From an uncultured Verrucomicrobiae bacterium (GTDB taxonomy: Bacteria; Verrucomicrobiota; Verrucomicrobiia; Limisphaerales; UBA11358), in assembly GCA_963806905.1 (NCBI GenBank), contig CAWEAA010000002.1, forward strand, positions 310,640 to 374,639: a DNA stretch of 64,000 nt, in the 5' to 3' direction. Positions 598 to 26,616 of the stretch are shown piece after piece. The notes beneath the pieces were generated by a model that saw only the letters and a list, made by a program, of their open reading frames with translations, had not been told where the DNA came from and made no database searches. Numbering within the stretch: position 1 is the first letter of the stretch; every line of letters begins with the position of its first letter. The translations under genes and the position numbers were made by a program.

Positions 598-627
598 CAA
601 TCAGAGGAAAATACGATGTTTTGCGCA

Positions 628-656: not shown

Positions 657-722
657 TTGCGCCCATATTGCGAGCCCCGCCCTGGAGCGGATTTTCTCGC
701 CCCGGAAAGGATGTGAGTTGCG

Positions 723-920
723 TTGACCGAAATTAGATTAAAAAAAGGCGAACCAGTGGAACGCGCGTTGCGGCGACTGAAGAAAAAAGTTGACCGCGAA
801 GGGACCTTGAAGGTCGTGCGCAATCACCGGCATTTTGAAAAGCCGAGTGAAAAGCGACGCCGCAAGGAAAAGGCCGCGCGCTTTTCCGCGATGCTCAGCG
901 CCCGCTACGCCGACCTGTAA
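723..920 (+). CDS. rpsU: 30S ribosomal protein S21
   Basis: GEPVERALRRLKKK...HFEKPSEKRRRK signature, 65 aa, TTG start. Confidence 0.97.
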   Translation: MTEIRLKKGEPVERALRRLKKKVDREGTLKVVRNHRHFEKPSEKRRRKEKAARFSAMLSARYADL

Positions 921-932
921 TTTGCAATTTCC

Positions 933-971
933 AAAACCGGGTGCGTCCGATTACGATGCGCCCGGTTTTTT
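933..971 (+). terminator. Intrinsic terminator after rpsU
   Basis: AAAACCGGGTGCGTC-loop-GATGCGCCCGGTTTTTT hairpin followed by a T-run. Confidence 0.75.
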
Positions 972-1886: not shown

Positions 1887-1890
1887 ATCT

Positions 1891-1944
1891 GTAGCCGCGT
1901 TTGTCAAAACGCGGTTTCGTCCGCCGTTTGACAACGGCGGCTAC
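1891..1944. repeat. GTAG-type REP doublet (inverted pair)
   Basis: GTAG-CCGCGTTT-gtca-AAACGCGG and CCGCCGTT-tgac-AACGGCGG-CTAC: two hairpins in inverted orientation with GTAG/CTAC ends. Confidence 0.75.
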
Positions 1945-1960
1945 GGTTTGCGATTCGACC

Positions 1961-1988
1961 CGTAAATCGTATATCGTAAATCGCAAAT
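1961..1988 (+). repeat. Heptamer tandem repeat (CGTAAAT x4) overlapping the cca start codon
   Basis: CGTAAAT CGTATAT CGTAAAT CGCAAAT(G). Confidence 0.8.
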
Positions 1989-3444: not shown

Positions 3445-3548
3445 ACCTTCCCCGGAAGATAATTGTTTGACTCTGATGGTGTGAACTTATTTCCTGGTTC
3501 GTGTCTATTCGTGTTGATGCGAGAGCGGGAATTAAAAAGACGACCAAT

Positions 3549-3673
3549 ATGCCAATTCAACTTCGCGAAAAATCACTGTGTAAATACGACCTGATTGCGC
3601 TGGGCGAAATCATGCTCCGGTTCGACCCGGGTGAAGGCCGTATCCGCACCGCTCGCGAATTCAAGGTCTGGAA
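3549..3673 (+). pseudogene. 5' fragment (41 codons) of a second kdgK allele
   Basis: MPIQLREKSLCKYDLIALGEIMLRFDPGEGRIRTAREFKVW matches the start of 4685..5782. I count 17 nt differences over 123 nt; similarity then stops abruptly. Confidence 0.85.
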
Positions 3674-3706
3674 TTTGGCTAATTCGAATTGGTGCAAGTT
3701 TGATAT

Positions 3707-4642
3707 ATGAAACTCAAAATCATATTAGTCATTCTTGGCTTTCTGGCATGGGCAAACGTTTTGTCAGCCGTTTACGCTCAAGTTTTTTGGGCCAAAATAT
3801 TTGGAATACTTGAATACAATTTTGATCTGACGCCTGCACAAGGCATTCTGCTGTTTCCAGTTCTTGTTCTTACACTTTTTATTCTGACTGGAGTTTGTTC
3901 GGCAGTTTTTCTGACGAAACAAATCCGCGCTAAAAAATTACTTTGCAAGTCATACGAAAACTTGGCGGGCTTTTTTTGCCTGTCAGCTTTTATATTTTAT
4001 CTCGTCATTTCAGGAAGCTACATGACGATGTGCGCTCAAATAATGGCGGCCGGTCGTATTGAGCAACCGCATGCCAAGGTCTATCAAACAGGACAAGTCA
4101 TAAATGGACAGTATGTGAATGAAACGTTTGGTTTGAGTTTTGTGTTGCCGCCCGGATGGGGTAACGCAAGTTGGGCAACGTTGGAAAGAAAGAGAATGTC
4201 AGGAGGAAATCCTTTATTACGAGAAAGGTTTTCTTCAATAAACATGACGCCAAGATTTTTTGAAGGACTTGAAACTTTAACAGCCATCCTGAAATTCCTG
4301 CCGGACAATGGAATTCCCTATAACCCAAACATGGTGGTAAATGCGAACGACAAAAAGGTTTTAGAGAAAAGAGGCATCACCGATTTGCTTGCCTTTTCTG
4401 AAGGCATGGCAAATCTCCCTTCATCCTATGTCGTTGACCAACCCACTGCGCCTGTAAACATTGGTGGAAGAAGATCGTTTAAATTCAAATATCATTCGCA
4501 AAGAGACGGGGTTGTAATTAAGCAAGAAATCTATACGTTCGAATCCGGAGATACATACTTCGCATTTGTAATTTCTGCCTTTGACGATTTGGATATTTCA
4601 AATTTAACGACGTGCGTGAATACAGTAAAATTTTCGAAGTAG
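3707..4642 (+). CDS. Hypothetical membrane protein (three N-terminal hydrophobic segments plus a soluble, possibly PsbP-like, domain), AT-rich
   Basis: Long ORF with hydrophobic N-third; Y.NETFGLSFVLPPGW start of the soluble domain. Confidence 0.7.
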   Translation: MKLKIILVILGFLAWANVLSAVYAQVFWAKIFGILEYNFDLTPAQGILLFPVLVLTLFILTGVCSAVFLTKQIRAKKLLCKSYENLAGFFCLSAFIFYLVISGSYMTMCAQIMAAGRIEQPHAKVYQTGQVINGQYVNETFGLSFVLPPGWGNASWATLERKRMSGGNPLLRERFSSINMTPRFFEGLETLTAILKFLPDNGIPYNPNMVVNANDKKVLEKRGITDLLAFSEGMANLPSSYVVDQPTAPVNIGGRRSFKFKYHSQRDGVVIKQEIYTFESGDTYFAFVISAFDDLDISNLTTCVNTVKFSK

Positions 4643-8178: not shown

Positions 8179-9453
8179 ATGCTTTATTTCGAACGCGGTT
8201 CCCCAAAGGCAAAGTTGTCGCTGGATGATTTGCGCGATGGCTTGTACAAGGCGCTGGCCCGCCTGGGCAAGCCCCAGCGGGTGCTGGTCGTGCCGCCGGA
8301 TTTCACCCGGTTCCATTCGCAGGCGGGTGTGCTGACCAGGCTCATCTCCGATTACTACGATGAGCGTTTGACGGACGTTCTGCCCGCGCTGGGCACGCAT
8401 TCGCCGATGACACCGGAACAGATCGCCGAAATGTATGCCGGCGTGCCGCCGGAGTTGTTCCGGGTTCACAACTGGCGCACGGGCGTCGCCACTGTCGGCG
8501 AAGTGCCGGCGGAGTTCGTGCGGCAGGTAACCGATGGCGCCGTGGATTTTCCCTGGCAGGCGCAACTGGCCAATCTCATCTGGAGGGGCAAACACGATTT
8601 GATCCTGTCCGTCGGCCAGATCGTCCCGCACGAAGTCGTCGGCATGGCCAGTTACAACAAGAACATCTTCGTGGGCACGGGTGGCACGGAAAGCATCAAC
8701 AAGAGCCATTTCGTCGGCGCGGCCTACGGGATGGAGCGGATGATGGGGCGCGCGGACACGCCGGTGCGGCGCATTCTCAACTACGCCTCCGAGCATTTCA
8801 CGAAGCACCTGCCCATCGTCTATGTGCACACGGTGATGGGAAACGACGCCAAGGGCAGATTGTGCGTGCGCGGCCTGTTCGTGAGCGACGATAGTTCTGG
8901 TTTCGACAAGGGCGCGGCGCTTTCATTAAAGGTCAATTTCAACATGCTCGACAAGCCGCTCAAAAAAGTGGTCGTCTATTTGGATCCCGGCGAGTTCAAG
9001 AGCACATGGCTGGGCAACAAGAGCATTTATCGCACGCGCATGGCCATGGCCGATGGCGGCGACTTGATTGTGCTTGCACCCGGGTTGAAGGAATTCGGCG
9101 AAGACGAGGAAATTGACCGGCTCATCCGCAAGTACGGTTATCGCGGCACGCCGGCGACGCTGGCGGCCGTGAAAGCCAACGCCGAATTGCAGAACAATCT
9201 CAGCGCGGCGGCGCATTTCATCCACAGCTCCTCCGAGGGCCGGTTCAACATCACGTATTGCCCCGGCCACCTCTCACGGGCGGAAATCGAGAGCGTCAAT
9301 TTCCGTTATGCCGACCTGCGACAAATGACAGCGCGTTATAATCCGGCCAAGCTCAGGGACGGCTGGAACATCATGCCGGATGGCGATCAAATCTTTTACA
9401 TTTCAAACCCGGCACTCGGACTGTGGGCGTATCGGGGACGATTCGAGGATTAG
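8179..9453 (+). CDS. LarA (lactate racemase)-family nickel-pincer epimerase, possibly D-mannonate/D-gluconate 2-epimerase
   Basis: PPDFTR, ALGTH, VPHEVVGMASYNK and KSHF align with LarA D-x-T-R, catalytic His, cofactor Lys and Ni-His motifs; hexuronate gene context. Confidence 0.75.
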   Translation: MLYFERGSPKAKLSLDDLRDGLYKALARLGKPQRVLVVPPDFTRFHSQAGVLTRLISDYYDERLTDVLPALGTHSPMTPEQIAEMYAGVPPELFRVHNWRTGVATVGEVPAEFVRQVTDGAVDFPWQAQLANLIWRGKHDLILSVGQIVPHEVVGMASYNKNIFVGTGGTESINKSHFVGAAYGMERMMGRADTPVRRILNYASEHFTKHLPIVYVHTVMGNDAKGRLCVRGLFVSDDSSGFDKGAALSLKVNFNMLDKPLKKVVVYLDPGEFKSTWLGNKSIYRTRMAMADGGDLIVLAPGLKEFGEDEEIDRLIRKYGYRGTPATLAAVKANAELQNNLSAAAHFIHSSSEGRFNITYCPGHLSRAEIESVNFRYADLRQMTARYNPAKLRDGWNIMPDGDQIFYISNPALGLWAYRGRFED

Positions 9454-9491
9454 AATCAAATTGCGTTCAAAATCCCACAAATTGATAAACG

Positions 9492-9560
9492 CCCCCTCAC
9501 TCGCCCTTCGGGCACCCTCTCCCCCGTTGTCAACGGGGGAGGAGGCCGGGGCAAGGGGGC
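9492..9560. repeat. CCCTCAC/CCCTCTCCC-type palindromic repeat
   Basis: CCCCTCACTCGCCCTTCGGGCACCCTCTCCCCCGTTGTCAACGGGGGAGGAGG...GGGG; related to 45297-45426. Confidence 0.7.
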
Positions 9561-9595
9561 GCGGTGCCCGCAACGCGTAAGCCACGGAGGCCACT

Positions 9596-10702
9596 TTGAA
9601 TCGAAGAATCGCCGGCCTGATTTCAGTACTGATGGCGGTGGGGCTTTTGATCGTTGGGATGTGGCCTTTTGCGTTCCGGCCTCTCAATCGCGTGGGCTGG
9701 CTTAAAGACCGCGCGGGTTTGTCATTCCTGCCCGACGGCGTCGCCTACGGACCGGAGGCAACCGATTGGTCCCGGGGCGGCCCGCCGGATCAACCGGCGG
9801 CGTTCACGATGGAACTCTGGCTCGAACCGGGCCAAGTGCCCCCCACCGATTTGTTCGATATCCTGACGATTGACGATGGCGTCTTCCCGTCAGGAATCGT
9901 CCTGTTTCAATGGAAGACGGAACTGCTGCTTCGTATTCGCGACCGTGCCAGCCGCCGTGGATTTCGAGAGGTTGGGCCGAGCGGCGTTCTGACAGAGCAA
10001 ACGCCCTGTTTCATCACCGTCACGGTGGCCCCCTCGGGGACAACTTTCTATTCGAACGGGTCCCGGTTGAGTCATTATCCCGGTTTCACCGTACCCAACT
10101 CACGGTTGAACGGGCGATTGATCCTCGGAAATGCCGCCGAGGGCAAACATCCTTGGAGAGGGAATTTATTCGGCCTGGCCATTTTCAATCGAGCTTTGGA
10201 CGCATCCGAAGTTGCGCAACATTACGCATTATGGACGAGCCATCAGGCAGGACAGCTTGCGGCTGAATCCGGCCTGGCCGCATTGTATCGCTTCGACGAG
10301 GGCAATGGACAATGGGTGAATGATCTCTCCACCAACCGGCATCGGCTGTTGATTCCAGAGCGATACAATGTATTGCGAAAACGCGTGCTGGAACTGGATC
10401 CAGTCGGAATGTCCGATTTGGATGATATCGCGGTGAATATCCTTGGATTCATGCCGTTCGGATTTATCGTGTACGGCTATCGCCGGCTGGCCAAACCTGA
10501 TGGCCGGGGCGGGAATCTTGTGTGGGCGGTCTGCGCCGGCGCAACGATCAGTTTGGCCATCGAACTGACCCAGGCCTGGCTGCCCAACCGCACCTCGTCG
10601 ATTAACGATATTTTGACCAATACGCTGGGGACATTCCTGGGCGCGCTCCTTGCAAGGAAGTTGCTGTCCAGGAGAACCTCCACCAACGTCACGCCTCCTT
10701 AA
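9596..10702 (+). CDS. VanZ-family membrane protein with inserted LamG/concanavalin-like domain
   Basis: FTMELWL, WRGNLFGLAIFNRALDASEV, LYRFDEGNG (LamG); NILGFMPFG, IELTQAWLPNRTSSINDILTNTLG (VanZ). Confidence 0.8.
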   Translation: MNRRIAGLISVLMAVGLLIVGMWPFAFRPLNRVGWLKDRAGLSFLPDGVAYGPEATDWSRGGPPDQPAAFTMELWLEPGQVPPTDLFDILTIDDGVFPSGIVLFQWKTELLLRIRDRASRRGFREVGPSGVLTEQTPCFITVTVAPSGTTFYSNGSRLSHYPGFTVPNSRLNGRLILGNAAEGKHPWRGNLFGLAIFNRALDASEVAQHYALWTSHQAGQLAAESGLAALYRFDEGNGQWVNDLSTNRHRLLIPERYNVLRKRVLELDPVGMSDLDDIAVNILGFMPFGFIVYGYRRLAKPDGRGGNLVWAVCAGATISLAIELTQAWLPNRTSSINDILTNTLGTFLGALLARKLLSRRTSTNVTPP

Positions 10703-10892
10703 TCCGGAGGCAATGGGATGCTTGCGTCACCACGACGATGGGCGGCACGCACAAGGCAAGAATGAACATACCAGTCTTGCGCATACGGGCAGGACAAGAG
10801 ACAATGGTGTGGCATGACTGCGCGTTTCATCAAGCGCCGGGCCACACCGGAGAAACGTGGTGCGAGACGGTTTGGGACAGGTTTTGATTTAT

Positions 10893-11666
10893 ATGACAAC
10901 ACCAGCGGAACTTTTTTCCCTCAAAGAGCGCGTGGCCGTCATCATCGGCGGCACGGGCGAATTGTGCGGCACGATGGCGGAAGGTTTTGCGTCGGCGGGC
11001 GCGAAGGTCGCGCTGGTCGGACGCGACGCGGGCAAAGCCAAAGTGCGGCTCGATAAAATTTCAAAAGACGGCGGCAAGGCGGAATTTTTCCCGTGCGACA
11101 CGACATCGAAGGCCGGGCTGCAAAAACTGCTGGCCGGTGTTCTTGCCAAATTTGGCCGCGTGGACATTCTGGTCAATGGCGCGGGCGTGAATTCGCCGAC
11201 GCCGTTCTTTGACATTTCCGAGGAGGAAATGGACCGCATTCTCACGGTGAATTTGAAAGGCGTGGTGCTGGCTTGCCAGGTTTTTGGCAAGCACATGGTC
11301 GCGCAAGGTTCAGGCAGCATCATCAATGTCGGTTCGGCGTCGGGGCTGAATCCGCTATCGCGCGTGTTCACCTATTCGGCGTCGAAGGCCGCCGTGCATA
11401 ACATTTCCAAAAATCTCGCGCGCGAGTGGGCGGCGAGGGGTGTGCGGGTGAACATTCTCGTGCCGGGATTTTTCCCCGCCGAACAAAATCGCACCGTGTT
11501 GAGCCCCGACCGGGTGGCCTCAATCCTGGCCAAAACGCCGATGAAACGCTTTGGCGAGGCACACGAACTCATCGGCGCGGCGTTGCTGCTCGCATCCGAT
11601 GCGGGCAGTTTTATCACCGGAACCGAACTCGTCGTGGACGGCGGGTTCGATGCCATGACCATTTGA
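10893..11666 (+). CDS. SDR oxidoreductase, probably fructuronate reductase/D-mannonate oxidoreductase
   Basis: [29 protein letters not shown]; directly upstream of uxaC. Confidence 0.8.
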
Positions 11667-11667
11667 T

Positions 11668-13074
11668 ATGAAATTCTGCGACGAAAATTTTCTGCTGTCG
11701 AACGATGTGGCCCGCGAGTTGTATCACCACACCGCGGTGAACCAGCCGATCATTGATTATCACTGCCATCTTTCGCCAAAGGACATTGCGGAAGACCGGC
11801 GCTTTGAGAATATCCACGAACCATGGCTGGGCGGTGATCATTACAAATGGCGCGCGATGCGGGCCAACGGCGTGCCGGAAAAATTGATCACCGGCAACGA
11901 GACCACCGCGCGCGAAAAATTCCAGGTGTGGGCGGCGACGGTTCCCAAGACCCTGCGCAATCCGCTTTTCCATTGGACGCACCTGGAATTGCAGCGCTAT
12001 TTCAGCATTGAAAAATTGCTGGAAGAAAGCACGGCGCAGGAAATTTGGGACGAAACCAGCCGTTTGCTCGCGCAACCGGGCTTTTCCGTGCGCGGACTTG
12101 TCGAGCGCATGAACGTCAAGGTGATTTGCACCACGGACGATCTCACCGACCGGCTCGAGCATCACAAAGCCATCGTAAAATCGGGCTGGAAGGTGAAAGT
12201 ATTTCCGGCGTTCCGCCCCGACAACGCGCTGCGCGTCAATCAGCCGGAGCGTTTCAAGCAATGGGTGAAAACTTTGAGCGACGCAGCGGGAACCAACGCG
12301 ACCACGTTCAAAGGTTTTCTAAAGGCGCTGAAGCAACGCCACGATTTCTTCCACGCCAACGGCGGCCGGCTTTCCGATCATGGCCTGAATCAAATGCCGT
12401 CTCTGGATTGCACGGAGAAAAAGGCCGCGGCGATTTTCTCGGCGGCACTCAAAGGCAGGGCGGCTTCGCCGGAAGACGCCGAGCGGTTTGCGTCATTCAT
12501 GATGGAATTTTTCGGCGTGCTGGACGCGGAGAAGAATTGGACGAAGCAGCTTCATCTCGGCGCCTTGCGCGACCCGAATTCGCGCATGGCGGAAAAACTC
12601 GGCGCGGACACGGGCAGCGACACCATTGGTGATTTTCCACAGATGGCGGGACTCGCGCGTTATCTGGACCGGCTTGATCGCATCGGCAAGTTGCCCAAGA
12701 CCATCATCTACAATTTGAACCCGGCGGACACCGGTCTGTTCGCGGGCATGCCGGGCAGTTTTCAGGACGGCTCCGTGGCGGGCAAGCTGCAGTATGGCGC
12801 GGCATGGTGGTTTCTCGATCAGGAGAACGGCATCCGCGCGCAGCTGGATGTCCTTTCCGATCTCGGTTTGCTCAGCCGATTCGTCGGGATGCTGACGGAT
12901 TCGCGTTCGTTTCTGTCGTATCCGCGTCACGAATATTTCCGGCGCATCCTTTGCGACACGCTCGGCGCGGACGTGGAGAGCGGGCGACTGCCCGACCGGC
13001 GCGAATGGCTCACCAATCTGGTCACCGACGTTTGTTACCGGAATGCGAAGAATTACTTCGGGTTCCCCGCTTAA
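11668..13074 (+). CDS. uxaC: Uronate (glucuronate/galacturonate) isomerase
   Basis: IIDYHCHL, GDHYKWRAMRANG, NPLFHWTHLEL, WWFLD, GMLTDSRSFLSYPRHEYFRRILC. Confidence 0.96.
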   Translation: MKFCDENFLLSNDVARELYHHTAVNQPIIDYHCHLSPKDIAEDRRFENIHEPWLGGDHYKWRAMRANGVPEKLITGNETTAREKFQVWAATVPKTLRNPLFHWTHLELQRYFSIEKLLEESTAQEIWDETSRLLAQPGFSVRGLVERMNVKVICTTDDLTDRLEHHKAIVKSGWKVKVFPAFRPDNALRVNQPERFKQWVKTLSDAAGTNATTFKGFLKALKQRHDFFHANGGRLSDHGLNQMPSLDCTEKKAAAIFSAALKGRAASPEDAERFASFMMEFFGVLDAEKNWTKQLHLGALRDPNSRMAEKLGADTGSDTIGDFPQMAGLARYLDRLDRIGKLPKTIIYNLNPADTGLFAGMPGSFQDGSVAGKLQYGAAWWFLDQENGIRAQLDVLSDLGLLSRFVGMLTDSRSFLSYPRHEYFRRILCDTLGADVESGRLPDRREWLTNLVTDVCYRNAKNYFGFPA

Positions 13075-15582: not shown

Positions 15583-17364
15583 TTATTTCTTCTTTTTTGG
15601 CGGCGGCGTCAATGCCGGATTTGCCGCCGGCGCCGCCGGGTCGCGCAGGTTTTTCGTCAGCTTGGTTTGCAGAATGGTCAGCAAATTGTTCACCGTCCAG
15701 TAAAGCGCCAGTCCCGCCGAGTAGTTGTAGAGGAACACCAAAAAAATCAACGGCAGGTACCGCATGATTTTTGCCTGCGTTGGGTCCATGCCCGGCGACG
15801 GTGGCGTCAGATGCGATTGCCACAGCATCGCCCCGCCCATCAGCAGCGGCAGCAGGTTGAACGGGAAATTGGTGCCCGGAATCATGAACAGCGTATCCGG
15901 CTTGGACAAATCCTTGACCCACAGGAAACTGGCGCCGCGCAATTCAATGGCGCTGCGCAGCATCGTGAAAAAACCGATGAACACCGGTGTCTGGATCAAC
16001 ATCGGCAAACAACCGCTCACCGGGCTGACCTTGTGTTTCCGCCAAAGCTCCATTTGCTTCTGTGTGAATTTTTGCGGGTCGTCCTTGTATTTTTCCTTGA
16101 GCGCCTTAACCTCCGGCGCGAGCGCCTGCATCCGTTTCATCGAGCGCGTGCTCGCCGCCATCAACGGCCAGAAAATGCCGCGCAGCAGAACAGTAATCAG
16201 AACAATCACCGAGCCGTAACCGAATTTCGTGACGTCGTGCAGCCAGTTCATCGCCAGCAGCAACGGCTTCGCGCAAAAACCGAAGAATCCGCCGAAGCCC
16301 ATCACGTTGTCCGCGTGATTTTGAAACTGCGCGCCAATGTCCGCCAGCGTCCGGTATTCCTTCGGCCCGGCGAAGAAAACGATTTGCCGCTCGATGACCT
16401 GATTGGTTGCCAGCGTCTGTGCGGGATAAACCAGGGCCGTTTGGACGCCTTGCGGCGGCGGTGCGCCGGGAATGGGTTCGACATTCGGAAACAACGGCAG
16501 AGTGACGGGGCGCGCGATGATTTGCTCCACCGGCTGCTTCGGCATCGCCAGCAACGCAAAAAACTGATTGTGCGCCGCCGCCCAAACAACGTTGTTCGAA
16601 CCGGCAACATATTCCGAACGCGGCATACCGCGAAAACAGCCGAGGCCTGAGCCCGAAAACCACGAGAACGGGTTGTCGTGCGAACTCGCGCCATCAAACC
16701 ACATCGCGCCTTCGTACATGGAATAGGTGCTGTCGTCCGGCCCCATCGGCGTCGCCGTGCCCACCACCAATTCCTGCGCCGGCAACGCGAGCGGTTTATC
16801 CGAGGTGTTTTCGAGCCGCACACTGGCGTTCACCAGATAATTGGAGCTGAGATGAAACTCCTTCACGAGCCGCAAACCGTTGGTGAACGATTTCTCGGCG
16901 CGAACCCCGTCATCGGTTTTCGTCAAAGTGAATATGCCGTCGCCGACGATCCCGTCATCGCCCAAAATCGCCAGCACCGGCACGGGCGCGCGGGTGTTCA
17001 ACGTGGCCACGGCGTTGGTCGGATTGCCTTTTCGAGTTGTCCACCGCGCCGAAACCGTTTCGGGGTAATCCAGCAATTCAACCAATTTCAGGCCGCCGCC
17101 GCGCGACGTAAACGTGTAACGCGCGAGCTGGTTCGCGAGCACCAGCGTCCGCTCGGGCGTGTTGGTGTCGAATGAATAAGCCGAAACCGCGGTCGGTGCG
17201 GCCAGGCCGGCGCTGGCATTTGCCGTTGTTGTTTGGGCCGCCGCGAGCGTGTTCGTGCCCGTTTGCGGCTGCGGCAAATGCGAGTAATACTTTTGCTGCT
17301 CGTAAAAACTCACGCCAAGCAGAATGGCGCAGAGTGTGACGACGATGATGCCGGTGCGGTCCAT
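15583..17364 (-). CDS. yidC: Membrane protein insertase YidC
   Basis: FAGPK, SMKRMQAL.PE, GCLPMLIQTPVF, IELRGASFLWVKDLSKPD, ALYWTVNN. Confidence 0.96.
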   Translation of the reverse strand: MDRTGIIVVTLCAILLGVSFYEQQKYYSHLPQPQTGTNTLAAAQTTTANASAGLAAPTAVSAYSFDTNTPERTLVLANQLARYTFTSRGGGLKLVELLDYPETVSARWTTRKGNPTNAVATLNTRAPVPVLAILGDDGIVGDGIFTLTKTDDGVRAEKSFTNGLRLVKEFHLSSNYLVNASVRLENTSDKPLALPAQELVVGTATPMGPDDSTYSMYEGAMWFDGASSHDNPFSWFSGSGLGCFRGMPRSEYVAGSNNVVWAAAHNQFFALLAMPKQPVEQIIARPVTLPLFPNVEPIPGAPPPQGVQTALVYPAQTLATNQVIERQIVFFAGPKEYRTLADIGAQFQNHADNVMGFGGFFGFCAKPLLLAMNWLHDVTKFGYGSVIVLITVLLRGIFWPLMAASTRSMKRMQALAPEVKALKEKYKDDPQKFTQKQMELWRKHKVSPVSGCLPMLIQTPVFIGFFTMLRSAIELRGASFLWVKDLSKPDTLFMIPGTNFPFNLLPLLMGGAMLWQSHLTPPSPGMDPTQAKIMRYLPLIFLVFLYNYSAGLALYWTVNNLLTILQTKLTKNLRDPAAPAANPALTPPPKKKK

Positions 17365-17370
17365 GAGAAA

Positions 17371-17865
17371 TTAAATTTCGAACTCCTTGCCGCGTCGAAG
17401 CGCAGCGGAGACGGGCGAATTCCCGCCTTCGCCTTCGGCTCCGGCGCGGCAAGCCTGGATGCAGGCAGCGTTGAAGCGCAGCGCAGACGGGCGAACTCCA
17501 AACTCCGGACTCCGAACTCCGAATTCCCTCTGGGGCACCGGATCGTGCCCGCCTTCGCCCCACGGATAACAGCGGCAAATCCGCTTTATTGCCAGCCAAC
17601 CGCCGCCAACGGCGCCTTGCGTGTGAATCGCCTCCATCGCGTATTGCGAACAGGTCGGCGTGAAGCGGCAGCCGCTGCCCGCGCCAAAAAGAAAAATTTG
17701 CGCCGGAGAAATTGTGAGTTGGTACACGCGAATGGCCAGCGTCAGAACTCGAATGACTAATGACGAAGCCCTAATGACTAAAGAATGACGAAACCCAAAT
17801 GATAAACCAGAAGCCGCCGTGCGCGCGGAGGTTTGGGCATTCGTTATTGGCAATTCTTTAGTCAT
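17371..17865 (-). CDS. yidD: Membrane protein insertion efficiency factor YidD with repeat-derived N- and C-terminal extensions
   Basis: [10 protein letters not shown]...[16 protein letters not shown]...[23 protein letters not shown]; between rnpA and yidC. Confidence 0.92.
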
Positions 17866-17888
17866 TCGGATTCAGGAATCAGTCATTT
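17750..17888. repeat. Inverted-arm heptamer element (AATGACT.../...AGTCATT), copy 1
   Basis: Left arm of AATGAC(T/G) units, right arm of AGTCATT units; 34-nt segment nearly identical to the copy at 53538-53697. Confidence 0.8.
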
Positions 17889-18253
17889 CCCAGCAGCCCT
17901 GCGCGATTCAGCGCAGTGAGCAAATCCCTTTCGACCTCGGCAAAACCGCGCCCGGCAATTGAATTTCGCGCCACGAGGACGAGTTCCACCGGTTGGGACA
18001 ATTCATGTTGATGCCGACGGAAGCTCTCACGGAGCAGCCGCCGCGCACGACTGCGTTCCACCGCACCACCGATTTTCCGGCTGGTGACAACGCCGAGTTT
18101 TGGTGTTGTGCCGACAGGCAGTTTGTTCCAGTTGGCGATGAGACAACCCTGTGCGAGCCGCTGTCCCTGCTGCCGGATGCGCATGAAATCACGATTTTGA
18201 CCGAGGCGCATGGCGCGACCCAGTTGCAGGCGTTTCGGCGATTCGGCGGGCAT
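17879..18253 (-). CDS. rnpA: Ribonuclease P protein component
   Basis: RL....DF, LGVVTSRKIGGAVERSRARRLLRESFR; between rpmH and yidD. Confidence 0.93.
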   Translation of the reverse strand: MPAESPKRLQLGRAMRLGQNRDFMRIRQQGQRLAQGCLIANWNKLPVGTTPKLGVVTSRKIGGAVERSRARRLLRESFRRHQHELSQPVELVLVARNSIAGRGFAEVERDLLTALNRAGLLGND

Positions 18254-18266
18254 GAACGCGCGCGGG

Positions 18267-18404
18267 TTAAACCGGGGTCAGGCGTTTGCGTCCGACGCGG
18301 CGGCGGTTGCGCAACGTGGCTTTGCCGCTCTTGCTCGAATTGCGGTTAAGAAATCCGTGCTGCCGTTTGCGGCGGATTTTCGACGGTTGATACTGGCGTT
18401 TCAT
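18267..18404 (-). CDS. rpmH: 50S ribosomal protein L34 (below the ORF-track cutoff)
   Basis: Manual translation [45 protein letters not shown]. Confidence 0.96.
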
Positions 18405-18446
18405 AAATGGTTCAGCGTCCTTCCGGGTGAAAGACCGGAACGTGCG

Positions 18447-18474
18447 AGGATAGCCATGAAACGCCTCGTGTCAA
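18447..18474 (-). promoter_or_regulatory. Candidate sigma70 promoter of the rpmH operon
   Basis: Minus strand TTGACA-16 nt-TATCCT; hairpin TTCCGG..CCGGAA at 18421-18440 in the leader. Confidence 0.6.
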
Positions 18475-18547
18475 GGCGGGGTTCGGCCTTCAAATCAACA
18501 AGCCGCACCCAATCGGATGCGGCCTGTGAAATGCAATTGCCTGCCTG

Positions 18548-18725
18548 TTACTTCACCAGTTGGGCGGCGGGCGCGGGCGTTGGTGCGGGCGTCGGCGCTG
18601 AATTTTGATGAACCGCGGCGCGTTCGATGCGGCCGGCGCTGTCCCACGCGCGCAACTTGTCCGCGTTGCTCTTGTATTTGTTCCGCACGATGGCATCAAG
18701 ACAGTTCACTTCCTTTATACCGTCA
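18548..18725 (-). pseudogene. C-terminal remnant of a hypothetical protein
   Basis: Reads DGIKEVNCLDAIVRNKYKSNADKLRAWDSAGRIERAA...PTPAPTPAPAAQLVK*; protein-like, but an in-frame stop lies just upstream. Confidence 0.5.
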
Positions 18726-18902
18726 CGCCAGCGCGTGGAATTCCTTTTCGCCCTCTACGAAAAACTCACCGCCCCGCTGTTGCCCGTCACGCCCAAAACC
18801 AAAAGCCGCCGGTCATCCCGCGATGGCGGGACCACTACAACACCGCGCCCGCGCAAACAGCGGACACCGGGTTTGCCGGGGCAAACTCCGATTCCTGGTT
18901 AA
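18726..18902 (+). pseudogene. Probable C-terminal remnant of an MmeI-like type IIL restriction-modification gene
   Basis: RQRVEFLFALYEKLTAPLLP followed by a basic tail, as recalled for MmeI-family C-termini; rest of the gene absent. Confidence 0.55.
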
Positions 18903-19007
18903 ATCCAAGCAAACGGAATTGCGCCAATTCATCCAGCAGGTCTTTCTATGCTGAAATCTCCTGAATTGATGCTGTTTTGAATGCAGCAATCTCCCGTCAT
19001 TATCACG

Positions 19008-21032
19008 CTATTGAGAAAGATAATTTATGATAGCCGGCACAACTGCCGACATGCCATGGTTGCCAACATTGGAATCGCTAAAGCCAAATCGAAGGGGTTG
19101 GCTGCCAGTAATGCCAGTAATTGTTGGTAATGGTATTGTTGGCCAAGTGACAGGGCGAACAACGATTTGTTTTCCTAGAGCGGTTGGAACGTTTGTGACT
19201 ATGGCCTGAGCGGAATTTTGAGCTGTTGTCAGCGTCTCACCGAATACATTATAATTAGTAATTTGCGATGTTTCCGCTGCCGCACTGTAACCGTAGTCGC
19301 TTGGCCTGACACCGGCGGCGTTAAAAGTAATAGCAGGCAGGCCAGTGGCAACTGACGCCAATGCCGCCTCGCCTCCCCCCAATGAATGTCCAGAAATTGT
19401 TATCGGGGTATTGGGAAATTCTTTCTGAACAAGCCTTGCTATTAGCGCCGCGGACACATATGCTTGTGACTTTTCGCCTAACGCATTTTGCTCATCCGCA
19501 CGCCGGTCATTCGGGTTGCTAGGATCTGTTCCGCGAAACGCCAAAATCAGGTTAACTGGTTTTCCGTCATCACTCATTTTCCCATAAAGAACAGCATCGG
19601 TTCCATCGCGAACAAGGGTGAATATTTGAAGAATTGAGTATCCCGGAGGATAATGATTCGTGGTGTAAGAGCTGTCGGCCGCATACATAGCATCAATAAC
19701 GCCCTGAAATCGAGCAAGCTTCGAACCTAAAACTCCTTGAGAAGGTGACGATGGTCCAGGGGAAGTTAAAGGCCCGGTATATCCCGCGCTTTTCTGGTAA
19801 TAATTGACACTGCTGCCGTTGCCGCCGGCAAAACCAGTCGAATTACCCGCTGCCGATGTCTCTTGAGCGGTTCCTGAAAGTTTGAGACCAAGTGGATTAT
19901 TCGCGTCCGGCTGCTGTGCGGAGGCAATCGTTTGCTGCGGCGTTGGATTGGGTGGAGGCAATTGATCAGGTGTTCCTTGATGAACTCCTGCGCCGCCCTG
20001 CGCTTGCATCGTGCTGGCCTCGCCTTTTACCATCGCTGGATCAACGGTCAAAGTTTTGGCATCCCGCAAATCAACGACATTGGGATCACCTGTCGGTTGC
20101 GGCGCGGCTGAATTTCCATTCCCGCCACCAAGACCAAAAAACGATGTGCCTTGTGGATGAAGATTTCCATCCGTCGCAGTGGCTGCGGCGGCTGAAGTGT
20201 TCAATGCGCTGCCAGGGCCACCATCGAAACCGCTCGAATCGCCTGCAGCCGATGTTGATTGAGCGATGCCAGTAATTTTAAGCTCAAGCGGATTATTGGG
20301 GTCTTGACCGCTCAATTGCGGGCCGCCCGATAGCTTTAACCCGCCGAGTTCAGGTGTTCCTGACAATTTCAAAACCCCATTCAAATCTGCAGCGATTTTA
20401 TTCCGACGCAAAGCGTCTTCAAGTTGTTGCAAGTCTTGCTGGGCGTCGGATAAGTCCTTTTGAATATATTGATTCGACACAAATTGGAGGGATCTTCCAA
20501 AATTGGCGACGGCAACTCGCAGATCTGCGAGCTCGGTGGAAGTATCTTGCTGTTTAGTAGCCAATGCAGCTTTGTTGAAGGCATCCGCGCCATATGCGTA
20601 ATAAAGATTTGCCCGGATTTGGTTGTCATTTGGAGAAAGTTGTGCGGCCTGCGCGAAACAATTTATTGCAGTCTGCCAGTCGCTTCTCCCACATGCATCA
20701 ATGCCTTGTTGGTTAATAGTGAGAGCTTGTTGTATCCGTGGGTCAACCGACGTTGGAGCGAAAAGCATGTGGCCCAAATTATATCCAAAATTGTATGAAG
20801 CTTGCCCAATATTATTAAGCATCATTTGTTGGCCGGGATTCAGACCAGGCGAGGAATATGAGGGAGTTGAGGGTTGGCTTGGTGCGGGGGGAGGATTTAC
20901 CGGAGTGGGAGTTGCAATGGGAACTAGGGTGCCAGGCGCTGTGTCATTATAGTATTGCTGCTGCGAGAAGGAATTCAGAGACAATAGCAAAGTTGTTAAT
21001 AATATTGTTGATCTGAAAATGGTAGCTTTCAT
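19008..21032 (-). CDS. Secreted protein: signal peptide, TPR, low-complexity linker and C-terminal lipase (DUF2974/Mbeg1/lipase_3-like)
   Basis: Signal MKATIFRSTILLTTLLLSLNSFS; TPR AINCFAQAAQLSPND; LAFRGTD, ISGHSLGG, AITFNAAG, C-terminal GNHGM. Confidence 0.8.
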   Translation of the reverse strand: MKATIFRSTILLTTLLLSLNSFSQQQYYNDTAPGTLVPIATPTPVNPPPAPSQPSTPSYSSPGLNPGQQMMLNNIGQASYNFGYNLGHMLFAPTSVDPRIQQALTINQQGIDACGRSDWQTAINCFAQAAQLSPNDNQIRANLYYAYGADAFNKAALATKQQDTSTELADLRVAVANFGRSLQFVSNQYIQKDLSDAQQDLQQLEDALRRNKIAADLNGVLKLSGTPELGGLKLSGGPQLSGQDPNNPLELKITGIAQSTSAAGDSSGFDGGPGSALNTSAAAATATDGNLHPQGTSFFGLGGGNGNSAAPQPTGDPNVVDLRDAKTLTVDPAMVKGEASTMQAQGGAGVHQGTPDQLPPPNPTPQQTIASAQQPDANNPLGLKLSGTAQETSAAGNSTGFAGGNGSSVNYYQKSAGYTGPLTSPGPSSPSQGVLGSKLARFQGVIDAMYAADSSYTTNHYPPGYSILQIFTLVRDGTDAVLYGKMSDDGKPVNLILAFRGTDPSNPNDRRADEQNALGEKSQAYVSAALIARLVQKEFPNTPITISGHSLGGGEAALASVATGLPAITFNAAGVRPSDYGYSAAAETSQITNYNVFGETLTTAQNSAQAIVTNVPTALGKQIVVRPVTWPTIPLPTITGITGSQPLRFGFSDSNVGNHGMSAVVPAIINYLSQ

Positions 21033-21158
21033 AGCTCATTAATTTGTGATCTACTTTTCTTTGGATTCGGGCAACCACGGCACAATCCGGCTGTTTGAAT
21101 GACTAGATGACGTTATGTTCATGATCATTTAATTGCGCGCAGGAATTAAGTCATTCCG

Positions 21159-22127
21159 TTATTTCGGCTGTTCGTCAGGAGGTAGAAAGATGCCCCCTAT
21201 TCCTACTCCTCTGCGCCCTGGAGGCGGAGGCTGTAAACTATTAGACTCCTGCGGGGATTCTTTGGCTTTTTCTTCCCAAATAATTATCTCATCGCGCGCC
21301 GCCGCCGCATCTTTGGAATCGGGCACAAGTTCCAGATAGCGACGCATATGGTCTGCTGCGTCGGCATAATCACCAAGCTCCTTTTCAATCATTGCGGTGT
21401 TAAACTGGCCATCCGGCCAGCAAGGTTCGATTTCCAAAGCCTGTTCATAATAATCCGCGGCCTCTTGAAAGCGTTTTTCACTATAAGCATTTTCGGCAAG
21501 CACGCGATTTTTATTAGCCTCTTCAGGCAACGGTGGCTTGGTGGCCAAAGCGCGCCATACCTCTGCTTTTTTCAGGAAGACCGCGAACTCATCTTCCGGG
21601 TTTAGCTTTCCACTTTGGGCGTCTGAAACAAGAACATCGAAGGCATCGAGGAAGGACTTCGCATCCGACAATTGGGCAAAAGTCACAAGCAGGCATCTTT
21701 TTTCCTGTTGATTTTCAAAGTTCATTGTCACGACATATCCACTTCCATTGCCAAAATGCACTACTGCGCTCGGACGTTCCCAAGGGCCTTGAAAACGAAT
21801 CCGGTGATTTATGGAATCTCGAAATAAGACAGTGAAAGTTTCCGTATTGTCCGGACTGCGGTAAACCAAACCGTCGCCGGTTGGAGATAAAACAATGCTT
21901 CCTCCCATCCTCACTGCTCCCGCCGTCCAAATTGACTCAACCGGATCGCGCAAAACAGAAGCCTGCTTTAAGTCGCGTTTTAATTGCAACCGCACTTGGG
22001 ATGCAGTTGTTGTTGAAGCAGACAGCGGTGTGGCACTTGGCTGATATGCAGTGGTGGCACATCCAGCGCAGAACAAAAGTAAACCAGCAAAAACGGTTTC
22101 AATTCGTGGAGTATATTTAGCTTTCAT
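21159..22127 (-). CDS. Lipoprotein with C-terminal TPR domain (paralog 3)
   Basis: LLLFCAG-C lipobox; WRALATKPPLPEEA...YYEQALEIEPCWP...YLELVPD. Confidence 0.8.
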   Translation of the reverse strand: MKAKYTPRIETVFAGLLLFCAGCATTAYQPSATPLSASTTTASQVRLQLKRDLKQASVLRDPVESIWTAGAVRMGGSIVLSPTGDGLVYRSPDNTETFTVLFRDSINHRIRFQGPWERPSAVVHFGNGSGYVVTMNFENQQEKRCLLVTFAQLSDAKSFLDAFDVLVSDAQSGKLNPEDEFAVFLKKAEVWRALATKPPLPEEANKNRVLAENAYSEKRFQEAADYYEQALEIEPCWPDGQFNTAMIEKELGDYADAADHMRRYLELVPDSKDAAAARDEIIIWEEKAKESPQESNSLQPPPPGRRGVGIGGIFLPPDEQPK

Positions 22128-22129
22128 TG

Positions 22130-22942
22130 TTAGTCAGTTAGTGGCGCTTTGGCTTTTTCTTCCCAAATGATTATTTCGTCATGAGCCGCTCTTGCATCTT
22201 TGGCATCGGGAACCAGCTCCAAATAGCAGCGCATGTGGTAAGCGGCGTAGGCATAATCACCAAGCTCCTTGGCGATCATAGCGGCATTGAATTGACCCTC
22301 CGGCCAGCAAGGTTCAATCTCCAATGCCTGCTCGTAGTAATCAATGGCGTCCTTAAATCGTTTTTCACTATAAGCATTTTCGGCCAACACGCGATTTCTG
22401 TCGACCTCATCCGGCAACGGCGGCTTGGAGGTCAAGCCACGCCATGCCACGGCCTTTTCTTTGAATTGATCAAAATCCTCTGCGTTCGGCAGCCCGTTTT
22501 TGGATACGGAGATCAGCAGGTTAATCGCATCCGTAAACGATTTCGCATCGTCAAGGTTTGTCCAGCATACTCGGCCATCGAATCCAAACGGCATAACATA
22601 GTAAGTGCCGTCGGCAGGGTTAAACCATACAGAAACCGCATACATATCCCGGAACAATCCCGAATGTGTCCTTCCGTCGATTCCCGTAAAGTGAAACTTG
22701 CGAAACGATGCTTCAAACCACTTATAATCGCCCTCGCGGACACTCTCGGAGCGGCTCAAGGATTGCATCAGTTGTTTTTGCGCCGTAGTAACTGGTATTT
22801 TTGAAATTGTTGCCGGATCCGAATCGTAAACAACTCTCTTCTGCTCGGCTTGGTTGCTCGCGCAGCCGCTAACAGCGAGCAAAGCGAAAGCACTCAGAAC
22901 ACAGGTGCAAACAATTCCAAGAATGCTCGATTGCTTGCTCAT
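22130..22942 (-). CDS. Lipoprotein with C-terminal TPR domain (paralog 2)
   Basis: LLAVSG-C lipobox; same TPR C-domain. Confidence 0.8.
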   Translation of the reverse strand: MSKQSSILGIVCTCVLSAFALLAVSGCASNQAEQKRVVYDSDPATISKIPVTTAQKQLMQSLSRSESVREGDYKWFEASFRKFHFTGIDGRTHSGLFRDMYAVSVWFNPADGTYYVMPFGFDGRVCWTNLDDAKSFTDAINLLISVSKNGLPNAEDFDQFKEKAVAWRGLTSKPPLPDEVDRNRVLAENAYSEKRFKDAIDYYEQALEIEPCWPEGQFNAAMIAKELGDYAYAAYHMRCYLELVPDAKDARAAHDEIIIWEEKAKAPLTD

Positions 22943-23775
22943 TTGATTATCGTGTTAGCTGGTTCCGGAGCAAAAGGCTCGCTGGGACTCGATGATGGTT
23001 CTTTTGCTTTCTCATCCCAAATGATCACTTGATTGCGGGCGGCTTCGGCATCTGAGGCGCCAGGAACCAACTCCACATAGCAGCGCATATGAAACGCGGC
23101 ATCTCCGTAATTACCAAGCTCGCCGTCAATCATCGCCACGTCATGCTGCGCATCCGGCCACAATGGACAAATTTCCAATCCTTGTTCGTAATAATCGGAG
23201 GCATCCGCAAAGCGCTTCTCTTGAACAGCATTCGCGGCTAGCACCAGATATTTATGGGCCTCATCCGGCAGCGGGGGTTTGGTGACCAATGCGCGCCATG
23301 CGGCGGCTTTTTGCTTGAATCGTTCAAAGTCGGCGTCTTGGCCAATTCCTTTTGATTTGAGAACGAGAACATTTAGCGCATCCGCAAAGGCTTCGGCTGA
23401 CTCAAGCCGATTCCATTGCACGTTGATTCCTTTGACCCGATAAATGTTTTGAACACCGAGTCGAACCACGACTGCGTCGTCTAGATTCTTGAAGCGATAC
23501 GAAAAAGTCCCCCCATCCCACCAAATCGGCGCACCAAAAGGATCGTGAGGATAAAAAATTTGGAAACCATCGCGACTTACTCTGATTTCCTTTTTATACA
23601 TCCCCTCCTGCAACGCTGCCTGTAATTGTTGTCGCGCCTGCGAAGCCGTTGTGTTTGCACTGCTCGCGTGTGAAATATCCGGCTGATATGCCGTGCTGAC
23701 GCAACCTGTGCTAAAAAGAAGCAAACCCGCAAAAAAGGAGACGGATACAATTCTTAAAACGACGATTGGTTTCAT
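22939..23775 (-). CDS. Lipoprotein with C-terminal TPR domain (paralog 1)
   Basis: LLLFSTG-C lipobox; same TPR C-domain; 4-nt overlaps with both neighbours. Confidence 0.8.
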   Translation of the reverse strand: MKPIVVLRIVSVSFFAGLLLFSTGCVSTAYQPDISHASSANTTASQARQQLQAALQEGMYKKEIRVSRDGFQIFYPHDPFGAPIWWDGGTFSYRFKNLDDAVVVRLGVQNIYRVKGINVQWNRLESAEAFADALNVLVLKSKGIGQDADFERFKQKAAAWRALVTKPPLPDEAHKYLVLAANAVQEKRFADASDYYEQGLEICPLWPDAQHDVAMIDGELGNYGDAAFHMRCYVELVPGASDAEAARNQVIIWDEKAKEPSSSPSEPFAPEPANTIIK

Positions 23776-24212
23776 GAGGGCGGACTTCCCTCCTTAACGG
23801 ATTCAATGCGGACTCTACGCGTTCGTGTTTTCTCATCGTTTGTGTCCAATGGCAAGAGCACGATTTCAGCCGTCACATATTTTCCGCAATAGTCTCTGAG
23901 TTTTTCGGCATTGCTGGCTTGTCCTACTACAAAGGGGCTCTTCGCCCCATTGTCCTCGGCAGCGAGGTAAAACACGATGCAGCGGTTTGTTTCGTTGCAG
24001 TTCTGTAAACATTCTTGTGACGGTTTTGTGTTCGGGCCGTAAATTTCGAGAAAAGCAGAGAGTTTTTTTGCACATATTCGATCTGCAAGCACCCAACCTT
24101 TGACAGTTATTTTATCTTTAGTGACAGCATTGGTGGATTCTTGTGCGTACACCAACGGCGCTATAAACCATAATGCAAAAATATTTATCGTAAGAATTTT
24201 TATCAGCTTCAT
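23772..24212 (-). CDS. Small secreted Cys-containing hypothetical protein
   Basis: GGAGAA RBS; signal peptide ending VYA-Q; several Cys; overlaps the next gene. Confidence 0.7.
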   Translation of the reverse strand: MKLIKILTINIFALWFIAPLVYAQESTNAVTKDKITVKGWVLADRICAKKLSAFLEIYGPNTKPSQECLQNCNETNRCIVFYLAAEDNGAKSPFVVGQASNAEKLRDYCGKYVTAEIVLLPLDTNDEKTRTRRVRIESVKEGSPPS

Positions 24213-24541
24213 ACAATTCTCCTTTTGTCATTTCGCCGGTGGCGGCGCGTGGTTGCCCGTCGGGAAAGTGTTGAGCCGGAATTCATCGCGCCCGCTGGAA
24301 TCGGCCGAGTCAGTCGCAGGGCATTTCAAATCGTCTAATTGCGGCAAGGGAATACTGGTTGCGGAACGTGGATGAGACCTGTTTCCGTAACGGTCAACGA
24401 CTCTGAGGTGTTGTTTTAGGGTCATACCCGTCGCCGCTTATGATAAACATTTTGGAACATAATTATCAAGGGAAAACCTTTCCACGCCAGTTTGCCCCCC
24501 CAACGGACATTATTTGCCAAGTCGTGGCTGCATCTTCCGAC

Positions 24542-24643
24542 GATGTCGCTCCTGAACGGAGCTTGGCCGGACAATGGATTGCGATCTACAATGATGCCAG
24601 CCCTATGGGCTTTGAATTCGTGTCAATTCGTGAAATTCGTGTC
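24542..24643. repeat. Degenerate REP-like element plus short TTCGTG repeat
   Basis: GATGTCGCTCCTGAACGGAGC and GATGCCAGCCCTATGGGCT hairpins; ATTCGTGTCAATTCGTGAAATTCGTGTC. Confidence 0.5.
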
Positions 24644-24729
24644 AAACCGTCTTCACTGTCCCCTTTTGACCACCTACAAGCGGTCGGAACGGTAAAACCC
24701 CAATTTTAAAGGCTTTTTCACATTTTTTA

Positions 24730-24960
24730 CCCCGCTGACACCTTCCTCGCCAAGATTTACCCGTTCCCCGCTAAAACTGGCACCGGCCCCGATTCGGCTG
24801 ACATTTCCCCTCACCAATTTACAGGTTCACCCGGTCAGCTCCATTTGCCCCGCCCAAATTTACATGCACCTCCTGTTCCTCTATCACTCACCCTTGATCG
24901 TCTCACACATGCCTCGCATCGCCTGACAGCCGCCCCGACCGGCTGGCATCCGCCCCCGTC
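24730..24960. repeat. Degenerate 20-21-bp periodic tract
   Basis: CTGACA/TTTAC/CTGGCA cores at 24735, 24756, 24777, 24798, 24818, 24859, 24902, 24923 and 24943. Confidence 0.6.
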
Positions 24961-25064
24961 CAATTACCGGAACATTCGGTCGCATAACAAACGCCCGTCG
25001 GCGGCTGACACACGCCGCTGAAGGTTTCGCACGCGCCTGCCGGGGAAATGCAGACGGGTTTGTG

Positions 25065-26507
<1,443 letters not shown>

Positions 26508-26587
26508 TTTGCCGAAGCCGAACATAACTGATTTGTGCCGGGCGGACAGCGAATTTTGCGTGCGGCCAAAATGGGGTTTTTCATTGT

Positions 26588-26616
26588 TTGACCTTGTTTC
26601 CTTCAACGCCTATACT
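26588..26616 (+). promoter_or_regulatory. Candidate sigma70 promoter of serA
   Basis: TTGACC-17 nt-TATACT, ending 16 nt before the ATG. Confidence 0.65.

Follow-up and report, generated by a model that had tools for sequence, protein, structure and literature searches.

Two groups stand among the closest described relatives of the system considered here. The first is the Tle-Tli pair of Enterobacter cloacae ('Tle6-Tli6'; PDB 9CYS and 7UBZ), in which a type VI secretion system (T6SS) lipase, with the published triad Ser341/Glu393/His448 and belonging to a group named Tle6, requires activation before it works, an Arg180-Lys461 methylglyoxal crosslink being needed for activity (PMC11470151). The second is the known class of Sec/type II secretion system (T2SS)-type polymorphic toxins with tetratricopeptide repeats (TPR) (Zhang et al. 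2012, PMC3482391). Here we describe an island of five genes (19008-24212, minus strand) within a 64,000-nucleotide stretch of DNA from an uncultured Verrucomicrobiae bacterium (hereafter the window, meaning the whole stretch analysed), in which three paralogous TPR proteins, probably lipoproteins, are encoded upstream of a 674-amino-acid (aa) protein with a signal peptide, a conserved N-terminal module, a disordered linker and a C-terminal lipase domain (the Sec-type pre-toxin, hereafter the toxin; 19008-21032, minus strand). We give an even chance to the reading that the island is a horizontally acquired, Sec-dependent polymorphic-toxin-like cassette, with a Tle6-type phospholipase as its cargo and the lipoproteins as cognate partners.

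Set beside Tle-Tli, the window toxin has a homologous lipase domain in which the GHSLGG elbow and the Ser/Glu/His residues are common to both, and the partner in E. cloacae is likewise a periplasmic lipoprotein of helical repeats (PMC11470151); here, however, a Sec signal peptide replaces the T6SS carrier, no T6SS having been found in the genome, and, no ankyrin partner being present, TPR lipoproteins that carry an additional alpha/beta domain are the candidates for that role. With the Sec/T2SS polymorphic toxins the protein shares a signal peptide, TPR-like repeats, a conserved N-terminus and a variable C-terminal toxin, whereas its GTSFFGxGGG/VVDLRD module is not among the leader or pre-toxin domains (MAFB-N, MicroscillaN, APD1, APD2 and the inactive transglutaminase) in the accessible text of that account (PMC3482391). 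They also differ in that no downstream immunity gene is present here, the partner genes lying upstream and sharing a module that is conserved among themselves. Where this lipase domain is borne on RHS, VgrG, PAAR, TssD, WXG100 and XVIPCD carriers (such as those at loci L058, L059 and L060; 30-45% identity), the proteins combine contact-dependent carriers with secreted ankyrin proteins encoded next, and the window toxin has neither. The architecture may also be likened to colicin-like bacteriocins, which are released toxins with a long disordered region carrying short binding epitopes; colicins lack a signal peptide, unlike the window toxin, and no receptor-binding domain, lysis gene or cytoplasmic immunity gene was seen in the island. 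A literature search returned no account of family PF26363, to which the lipase domain is assigned; among the titles listed there was also none of such an architecture, and Tle6/Tli6 was treated only in PMC11470151, supplements lying outside the search. Additional Tle6 architectures or pre-toxin domains may be given in the supplementary tables of PMC11470151 and PMC3482391. The scaffold with its motifs, the lipoprotein partner family and a Tle6-type lipase that has neither a T6SS nor ankyrin immunity all look new.

The lipase domain and its carriers

The lipase domain (residues 440-674; 19011-19715, minus strand) was matched by phmmer to the E. cloacae T6SS lipase effector (7ubz_B, E 1.3e-10), its sole solved relative by sequence (7ubz_B/9cys), and the GHSLGGG, TFNAAG and GE.LT..Q segments align between the two proteins. 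An AlphaFold2 model of the domain, built on a 50-row alignment (mean predicted local distance difference test score (pLDDT) 88.8), gave 9cys_A as its top Foldseek match (E 3.5e-11), followed by fungal feruloyl esterases and lipases. The kinship to antibacterial effector lipases that a preliminary description of this DNA had claimed is therefore borne out, the domain falling in the Tle family by both phmmer and Foldseek. The putative catalytic triad consists of Ser550 (19383-19385), Glu599 (19236-19238) and His659 (19056-19058; all minus strand), which are invariant in the seven closest family members and have a spacing similar to that of the Tle triad; Glu599 aligns within GE.LT..Q, and His659 is placed from spacing and invariance and not from the phmmer alignment to 7ubz_B, which stops short of the terminal helices. 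Being homologous to Tle and having a probable Ser/Glu/His triad, the domain is assigned to the Tle6 type. No Lys is present within toxin residues 659-674, where Tle has the crosslinked Lys461, as judged from a reading of the sequence and not from a structural alignment. In family databases, the Pfam Lipase_3 match lay below its gathering threshold (19.9 bits vs 22) and NCBIfam gave a partial SA1320-family match for the lipase protein. A search with residues 440-674 returned 138 proteins at E <= 0.001, and all of the 120 listed carry PF26363 as a precomputed annotation, a family absent from the Pfam copy used locally.

Carriers were counted by precomputed domains and names among these 120 matches listed (of 138), where at least 65 homologues bear a toxin carrier domain or name. 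The most frequent is X-Tfes_XVIPCD (PF20410; family name confirmed) with 33 proteins, followed by WXG100 (PF06013) with ten, TssD (PF17642; family name confirmed) with six, RHS (by domain, name or sequence) with six, PF14107, which we take to be a PAAR-like domain of unknown function (DUF), with five, VgrG-type carriers with three and PAAR (PF05488) with two. One hundred relative loci were fetched from genomes and metagenomes, 98 of them with a lipase-domain open reading frame (ORF), and an ankyrin-like ORF lies at most 500 bp away on the same strand in 56 of these 98, which fits the published Tle6-ankyrin pairing (PMC11470151). At L058 and L059, RHS tips are followed by secreted ankyrin proteins. 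Positions 1-4256 of the metagenome contig L059 hold three successive RHS-tip cassettes, a textbook toxin-immunity array: in the first, an HExxH-like domain precedes a small secreted protein, and the second and third each have a Tle6-type lipase followed by a secreted ankyrin protein.

No marker of a T6SS, a type IV secretion system (T4SS) or contact-dependent inhibition (CDI) had been reported from the window. This holds genome-wide for VipB/TssC, TssD, Phage_GPD and XVIPCD, none of which was found in the 92% complete genome, the control genomes being equally matchless in the TssD search; one distant RHS protein does exist. An 1,831-aa open frame with RHS repeats (contig C2 of this genome, bases 1289-2731) stands at the contig start, approximately 308 kb from the island.

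The N-terminal scaffold and its variable C-termini

Ahead of the lipase domain, the plan claimed for the 674-aa protein could be recovered: a hydrophobic N-terminus, a weak TPR match (residues 108-136; TPR_2, E 0.042, under the cut-off), a G/S/P/Q linker (residues 216-440, 225 aa, 44% G+S+P+Q) and GHSLGG at residues 548-553. Signal peptides and lipoboxes, here and below, were read by eye from the sequence and not with a predictor. The six closest lipase relatives (P0002-P0007, 560-880 aa) likewise consist of a signal peptide, TPR, a long low-complexity linker and the lipase.

Searching with residues 60-345 yielded seven proteins at E <= 0.01 among 8,000 candidates scored, six of them other than the query itself. 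Two of these homologues (P0185 and P0186) end in the lipase, and the other four (P0184, P0187, P0188 and P0189) do not. P0184 is 57% identical to the toxin across residues 64-385, the N-module (19878-20843, minus strand), and has no similarity to it beyond. The point of divergence coincides with the second of a pair of 'NPLGLKL...' segments; the DNA encoding the pair is a 96-nt internal direct repeat, whose copies are 72% identical in nucleotides and 57% at the protein level; copy 1 (19812-19907) encodes the second segment (NPLGLKLSG...GFAGGNGS) at the variable C-terminal junction, and copy 2 (20208-20303) encodes the NPLELKITG... segment. P0187, P0188 and P0189 keep the scaffold motifs yet lack GHSxGG, and the C-termini of P0184 and P0187-P0189 gave no informative Pfam, NCBIfam or PDB sequence match. 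Among the homologues, then, a conserved N-terminal region is joined to unrelated C-terminal domains, as is characteristic of polymorphic toxins, and on these alignments the C-terminus is shown to be exchangeable on a conserved N-terminal scaffold. Such exchange had been suspected in the preliminary description, and the search with the N-terminal part, in which four of six non-self homologues proved to be without the lipase, confirms it.

Two motifs mark the linker. The first, GTSFFGLGGG (residues 295-304; 20121-20150, minus strand), is matched in the form G(T/S)xFFGxGGG by 8 of the 13 distinct scaffold proteins scanned. The second is a short linear motif, VVDLRDAKTLTVDPAMVK (residues 319-336; 20025-20078, minus strand), whose VVDLR-type core all 13 contain, in most cases ahead of (I/V)DP..(L/V)K. 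Seven proteins among the 120 lipase-domain matches listed contain a VVDLR-type motif, and these are exactly the scaffold proteins; in the six-frame translation of the source genome (9,733,810 residues), the strict VVDLRD motif is seen a single time. VVDLRD may bear a loose resemblance to a TonB box.

Matches of the TPR region to the NCBIfam family of Amuc_1098, a pilus outer-membrane family, were rejected as generic TPR similarity (20.9 bits vs a cut-off of 750). P0184 and P0002 have paired CxxCxGxG motifs after the signal peptide (weak DnaJ_CXXCXGXG matches, E 2.5e-4 and 0.018), and the window toxin has none. The C-terminal part of P0187 (residues ~455-520) is a Gly/Ala-rich hydrophobic stretch that gives the impression of a glycine-zipper membrane toxin.

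A secreted or surface lipase working on nutrients or in envelope lipid remodelling, with the lipoproteins as folding or anchoring accessories, would also have a Sec signal and need neither the injection system that was not found in the genome nor an ankyrin immunity gene. The likeness of the fold to fungal lipases and feruloyl esterases and the scaffold-lipase relatives L008 and L056, which have no obvious immunity neighbour, are consistent with such a role. We nevertheless consider it quite unlikely that the protein is not a weapon: the closest relative in both sequence and fold is an antibacterial effector, at least 65 homologues among the 120 matches listed are on toxin carriers, the unrelated C-termini on the scaffold are typical of toxins and not of metabolic enzymes, and the distribution is sporadic and the codon usage foreign.

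The lipoprotein family and its linkage to the scaffold

Three genes on the minus strand encode the probable lipoproteins LP1 (21159-22127, 322 aa, adjoining the toxin gene), LP2 (22130-22942, 270 aa) and LP3 (22939-23775, 278 aa). They had been described as paralogous lipoproteins, and they are indeed paralogues with a lipobox-like G-C signal end: G-C ends the hydrophobic stretch in LP1-LP3 and in most relatives, position -3 being non-canonical in LP1 and LP3. The three are 58-72% identical across their C-terminal 135 residues, consisting of a helix, the segment 'W R A L.. K P P L P E' and two TPRs, as against 11-21% in the N-domain; LP3, for example, joins a variable alpha/beta N-domain to the conserved two-TPR module, and of the three it has the nearest relatives outside the island (P0124, 61% identity). 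An AlphaFold2 model of LP1 (mean pLDDT 80.8) comprises a helix, a strand-rich domain (strands 77-150) and helices at 153-290. At E <= 0.001, 55 family members were counted in the protein collection, the window's three included, and the constant TPR module of the family is joined to varied N-domains or, in some members, to C-terminal extensions such as SLBB. Several members have contig size and source in common, namely P0124, P0126, P0127 and P0129 (a 6,333-bp ENA contig) and P0125 and P0128 (an 8,347-bp JGI contig), which points to tandem lipoprotein arrays. At locus L057 (909-1946), the end of a scaffold-lipase gene is overlapped by a gene for a secreted helical SLBB protein, and the SLBB domain that family member P0129 carries on its TPR module shows 37% identity (E 8e-10) to this protein.

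The lipoprotein family and the scaffold motif recur together in genome G579 of the same phylum. There a single family member (403 aa; locus L154, 7870-9081) lies two genes from a 610-aa protein (10498-12330) whose sole similarity to the toxin is 'P.P...P.VVDLRDA....(V/I)DPA(L/M).K' (14/27 identical, pairwise E 1e-5). Between the motif protein and the TPR lipoprotein, and overlapping the gene of the former by 4 bp, is a gene for a 380-aa secreted protein (L154, on contig C4 of G579; 9359-10501), whose C-terminal Cys segment (..EDNMVCSEAARL..) may resemble papain-like or NlpC-type enzymes; neither the 380-aa nor the 610-aa protein gave an informative Pfam, NCBIfam or PDB sequence match. A second instance is probable: for P0184, as for P0125 and P0128 of the lipoprotein family, exactly one JGI contig of 8,347 bp is on record, and it is probably the same contig for all three. 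Lipoprotein-linked motifs read VVDLRD...(V/I)DPA, and those of relatives without these lipoproteins read VVDLRGK.GIVDP(S/A), a pattern across six loci and not a test. Given this co-conservation of the lipoprotein family and the motif, the TPR module may recognise the linker motif, and the three lipoproteins are probably docking or immunity partners of the scaffold.

The multimer check proposed in the preliminary description was run for LP1, pairing toxin residues 25-674 (56-row alignment) with LP1 residues 24-292 (46-row alignment). The complex score was 0.35 (runs 0.00, 0.38 and 0.35) and that of the best of three controls 0.00; in the benchmark, 58 out of 80 solved complexes came up to the mark, as did 2 out of 110 mismatched pairs, with scores at or below 0.60 accounting for 7 of the 80 solved complexes and for both passing mismatches. 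The runs agree in at least 0% of contacts, the partner pLDDT is at least 69 and no interface was given, so that a contact with the lipase and a contact with the scaffold are indistinguishable from the score. The check thus placed the pair above its controls and lends weak support to a toxin-LP1 contact.

Several results weigh against reading the lipoproteins and the toxin as one cassette. At none of the 100 fetched loci of lipase relatives was there a match to A2, the profile built from the three lipoproteins, and the three closest fetched scaffold-lipase relatives are without such genes: no A2-type lipoprotein is present in the fetched flanks of L008 and L056 or in the 2.4 kb downstream of L057, and the 4.4-Mb genome behind L008, for which no completeness is given, has no A2-type gene at E <= 1e-8. 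The link between lipoproteins and N-module proposed earlier stands for G579 and probably for the 8,347-bp contig, and does not extend to L008, L056 and L057, which are also without ankyrin genes nearby. Their neighbours are instead a PEGA/PD40 lipoprotein upstream (L008), a DUF2846 lipoprotein upstream (L056) and an SLBB protein downstream (L057). That P0184, P0125 and P0128 share a contig is read from equal size and source only, and the complex score is weak, one of three runs being 0.00. For LP1, Foldseek and VIA-align returned TPR matches only (residues ~198-292) and nothing informative for the N-domain. Tle6 lipases are said always to occur with ankyrin immunity proteins as partners (PMC11470151); no ankyrin-like ORF is present in the window, and the two Ank_2 genes of the genome sit on another contig, C4. 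The toxin gene has no recognisable gene 3' of it, with approximately 600 bp to rpmH, and the immunity genes of polymorphic toxins usually sit directly downstream of the toxin gene. An outer-membrane route was not identified, the genome search giving secretin genes only. Immunity conferred by the lipoproteins, as suggested in the preliminary description, is not supported by any result here. The LP1 N-domain also had an ESM Atlas score (0.82) under the useful range. In L056, from a metagenome contig of 357 kb, positions 3110-4555 encode a DUF900 alpha/beta hydrolase with a signal peptide; the scaffold-lipase gene has it 1.9 kb upstream.

The same results bear on whether the lipoproteins serve docking only, tethering or escorting the scaffold through a TPR-motif contact for display, export or release and conferring no immunity, with the producer kept safe by a lipase that is inactive until release or processing. 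The family follows the motif and not the lipase, G579 having no lipase and P0184 another C-terminus; scaffold-lipase relatives without these lipoproteins exist; E. cloacae Tle requires activation (PMC11470151). Peptide-bound TPR entries are also among the LP1 fold matches. TPR modules commonly bind short peptides. Docking alone would, however, leave the hypervariable N-domains (11-21% identity) and the three tandem paralogues unexplained, and no export machinery is encoded in the island; we regard it as an unlikely full account. Still less do we favour a chance neighbourhood, in which the lipase gene and the lipoprotein array would sit on one island yet be functionally unconnected. Here the 126-bp gap between LP1 and the toxin gene and the absence of A2 matches at the 100 lipase-relative loci fetched have to be set against a pairing that recurs in G579 and probably on the 8,347-bp contig though both families are rare, against co-oriented genes with 4-bp overlaps upstream and against a complex score that is weak yet above its controls, and we consider chance very unlikely.

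Gene order, composition and the proposed mechanism

Five co-oriented, partly overlapping minus-strand genes make up the island in the ORF list, with junctions that are, in order, a 4-bp overlap, a 4-bp overlap, a 2-bp gap and a 126-bp gap before the toxin gene. The AT-richer, co-oriented five-gene unit reported in the preliminary description was found again as the same five ORFs with a lower GC content. Its first gene (23772-24212, minus strand; GC 0.442) had been called that of a small Cys-rich secreted protein; the gene and a signal-peptide-like N-terminus are there, and 'Cys-rich' is generous for 5 Cys in 146 aa. The product is an orphan, its sole match among 1.84 billion representatives being itself, with no Pfam or NCBIfam family and an ESM Atlas score of at most 0.88, under the useful range.

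The composition of the island is foreign. Sliding GC is 0.46-0.52 within it and 0.55-0.64 outside, and GC at third codon positions is 0.42-0.54 in island genes as against 0.76-0.80 in yidC, the sigma-54 regulator gene and serA, the genome GC being 0.565. The genes on either side are ordinary ones. One flank (15583-18404, minus strand) comprises yidC, yidD, rnpA and rpmH; the other begins with a sigma-54 response regulator gene (25065-26606), followed by serA. By blastn of same-genus regions against the genome, similarity ends near 18494 on the rpmH side (four genomes fetched) and at 25064 on the regulator side (five genomes fetched), and neighbours beyond the regulator and rpmH differ in every same-genus genome fetched, so that the 6.6-kb segment between these points (18495-25063) is taken to be genome-specific. 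A clean insertion site could not be drawn, and the segment is described as genome-specific DNA between two variable junctions; the window has no tRNA. Both flanks are genus-wide synteny breakpoints, the relatives' DNA beyond them mapping to differing contigs of this genome.

The stretch between rpmH and the toxin gene (18405-19007) has a GC near 0.58 and long ORFs on both strands, none of them gene-like and none with a family match; a promoter-like site for rpmH is seen at 18474-18447. A transposase remnant was considered for 18410-19008 and dropped: seven stop-to-stop translations there and upstream gave no meaningful Pfam match (E <= 5), and the stretch is also single-copy in the genome. In the 850-bp non-coding stretch upstream of the island, a ~36-nt element (...GAATTCGTGTCAATTCGTGAAATTCGTG...) at 24608-24646 is repeated, with 90-94% identity, at five further places in the genome, on four contigs.

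The 4.87-Mb genome has one copy of the cassette, which is rare beyond it; the genome surveys are samples that include incomplete genomes, and absence refers to the genomes searched. Of 40 genomes searched for the full-length 674-aa protein, one had it, and this was its own; 23 of the remaining 39 belong to its genus and 16 to its order. Profile A2 was matched in one of 301 genomes of the order at E <= 1e-15 (the source genome), in two of 401 sampled genomes of the phylum at E <= 1e-12 (the source genome and G579) and in one of 251 genomes of the order of G579 (G579 itself). The N-module was found in none of 400 other genomes of the phylum at E <= 1e-4.

Under the cassette reading, the 674-aa protein would be exported via its signal peptide. 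Its scaffold would consist of one TPR, a coiled stretch and a disordered linker of ~225 aa with GTSFFGxGGG and VVDLRD..VDPAxxK, onto which the C-terminal toxin could be swapped, and the Tle6-type phospholipase would attack membrane phospholipids from the periplasmic side. The upstream lipoproteins would act as membrane-anchored partners of the toxin. Most likely their conserved TPR module would grip the conserved linker motif, and their hypervariable N-domains would give specificity, either capping the variable toxin domain (immunity) or selecting it. In its strictest form this amounts to a handle-and-cap system not previously described, in which the TPR module holds the VVDLRD..VDPAxxK handle and the N-domains cap the variable toxin; we put this form forward tentatively, as a rather doubtful proposition. 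With five genes and clear mutational targets (Ser550, the 18-aa motif and each lipoprotein), the question is testable.

The Tle6-type domain is known from contact-dependent weapons, and its homologues here are on T6SS, type VII secretion system, T4SS and RHS carriers. If the cassette reading is true, it would add another way for diderm bacteria to deploy periplasm-acting toxins, and would define a pre-toxin module and a lipoprotein family, both of them new, together with a conserved short linear motif, with possibly a second, non-ankyrin control of a Tle6-type lipase. Were the handle-and-cap form also to hold, a Tle6-type phospholipase, known apart from this only from injection systems with ankyrin immunity, could be used, and survived, by bacteria that have no T6SS.

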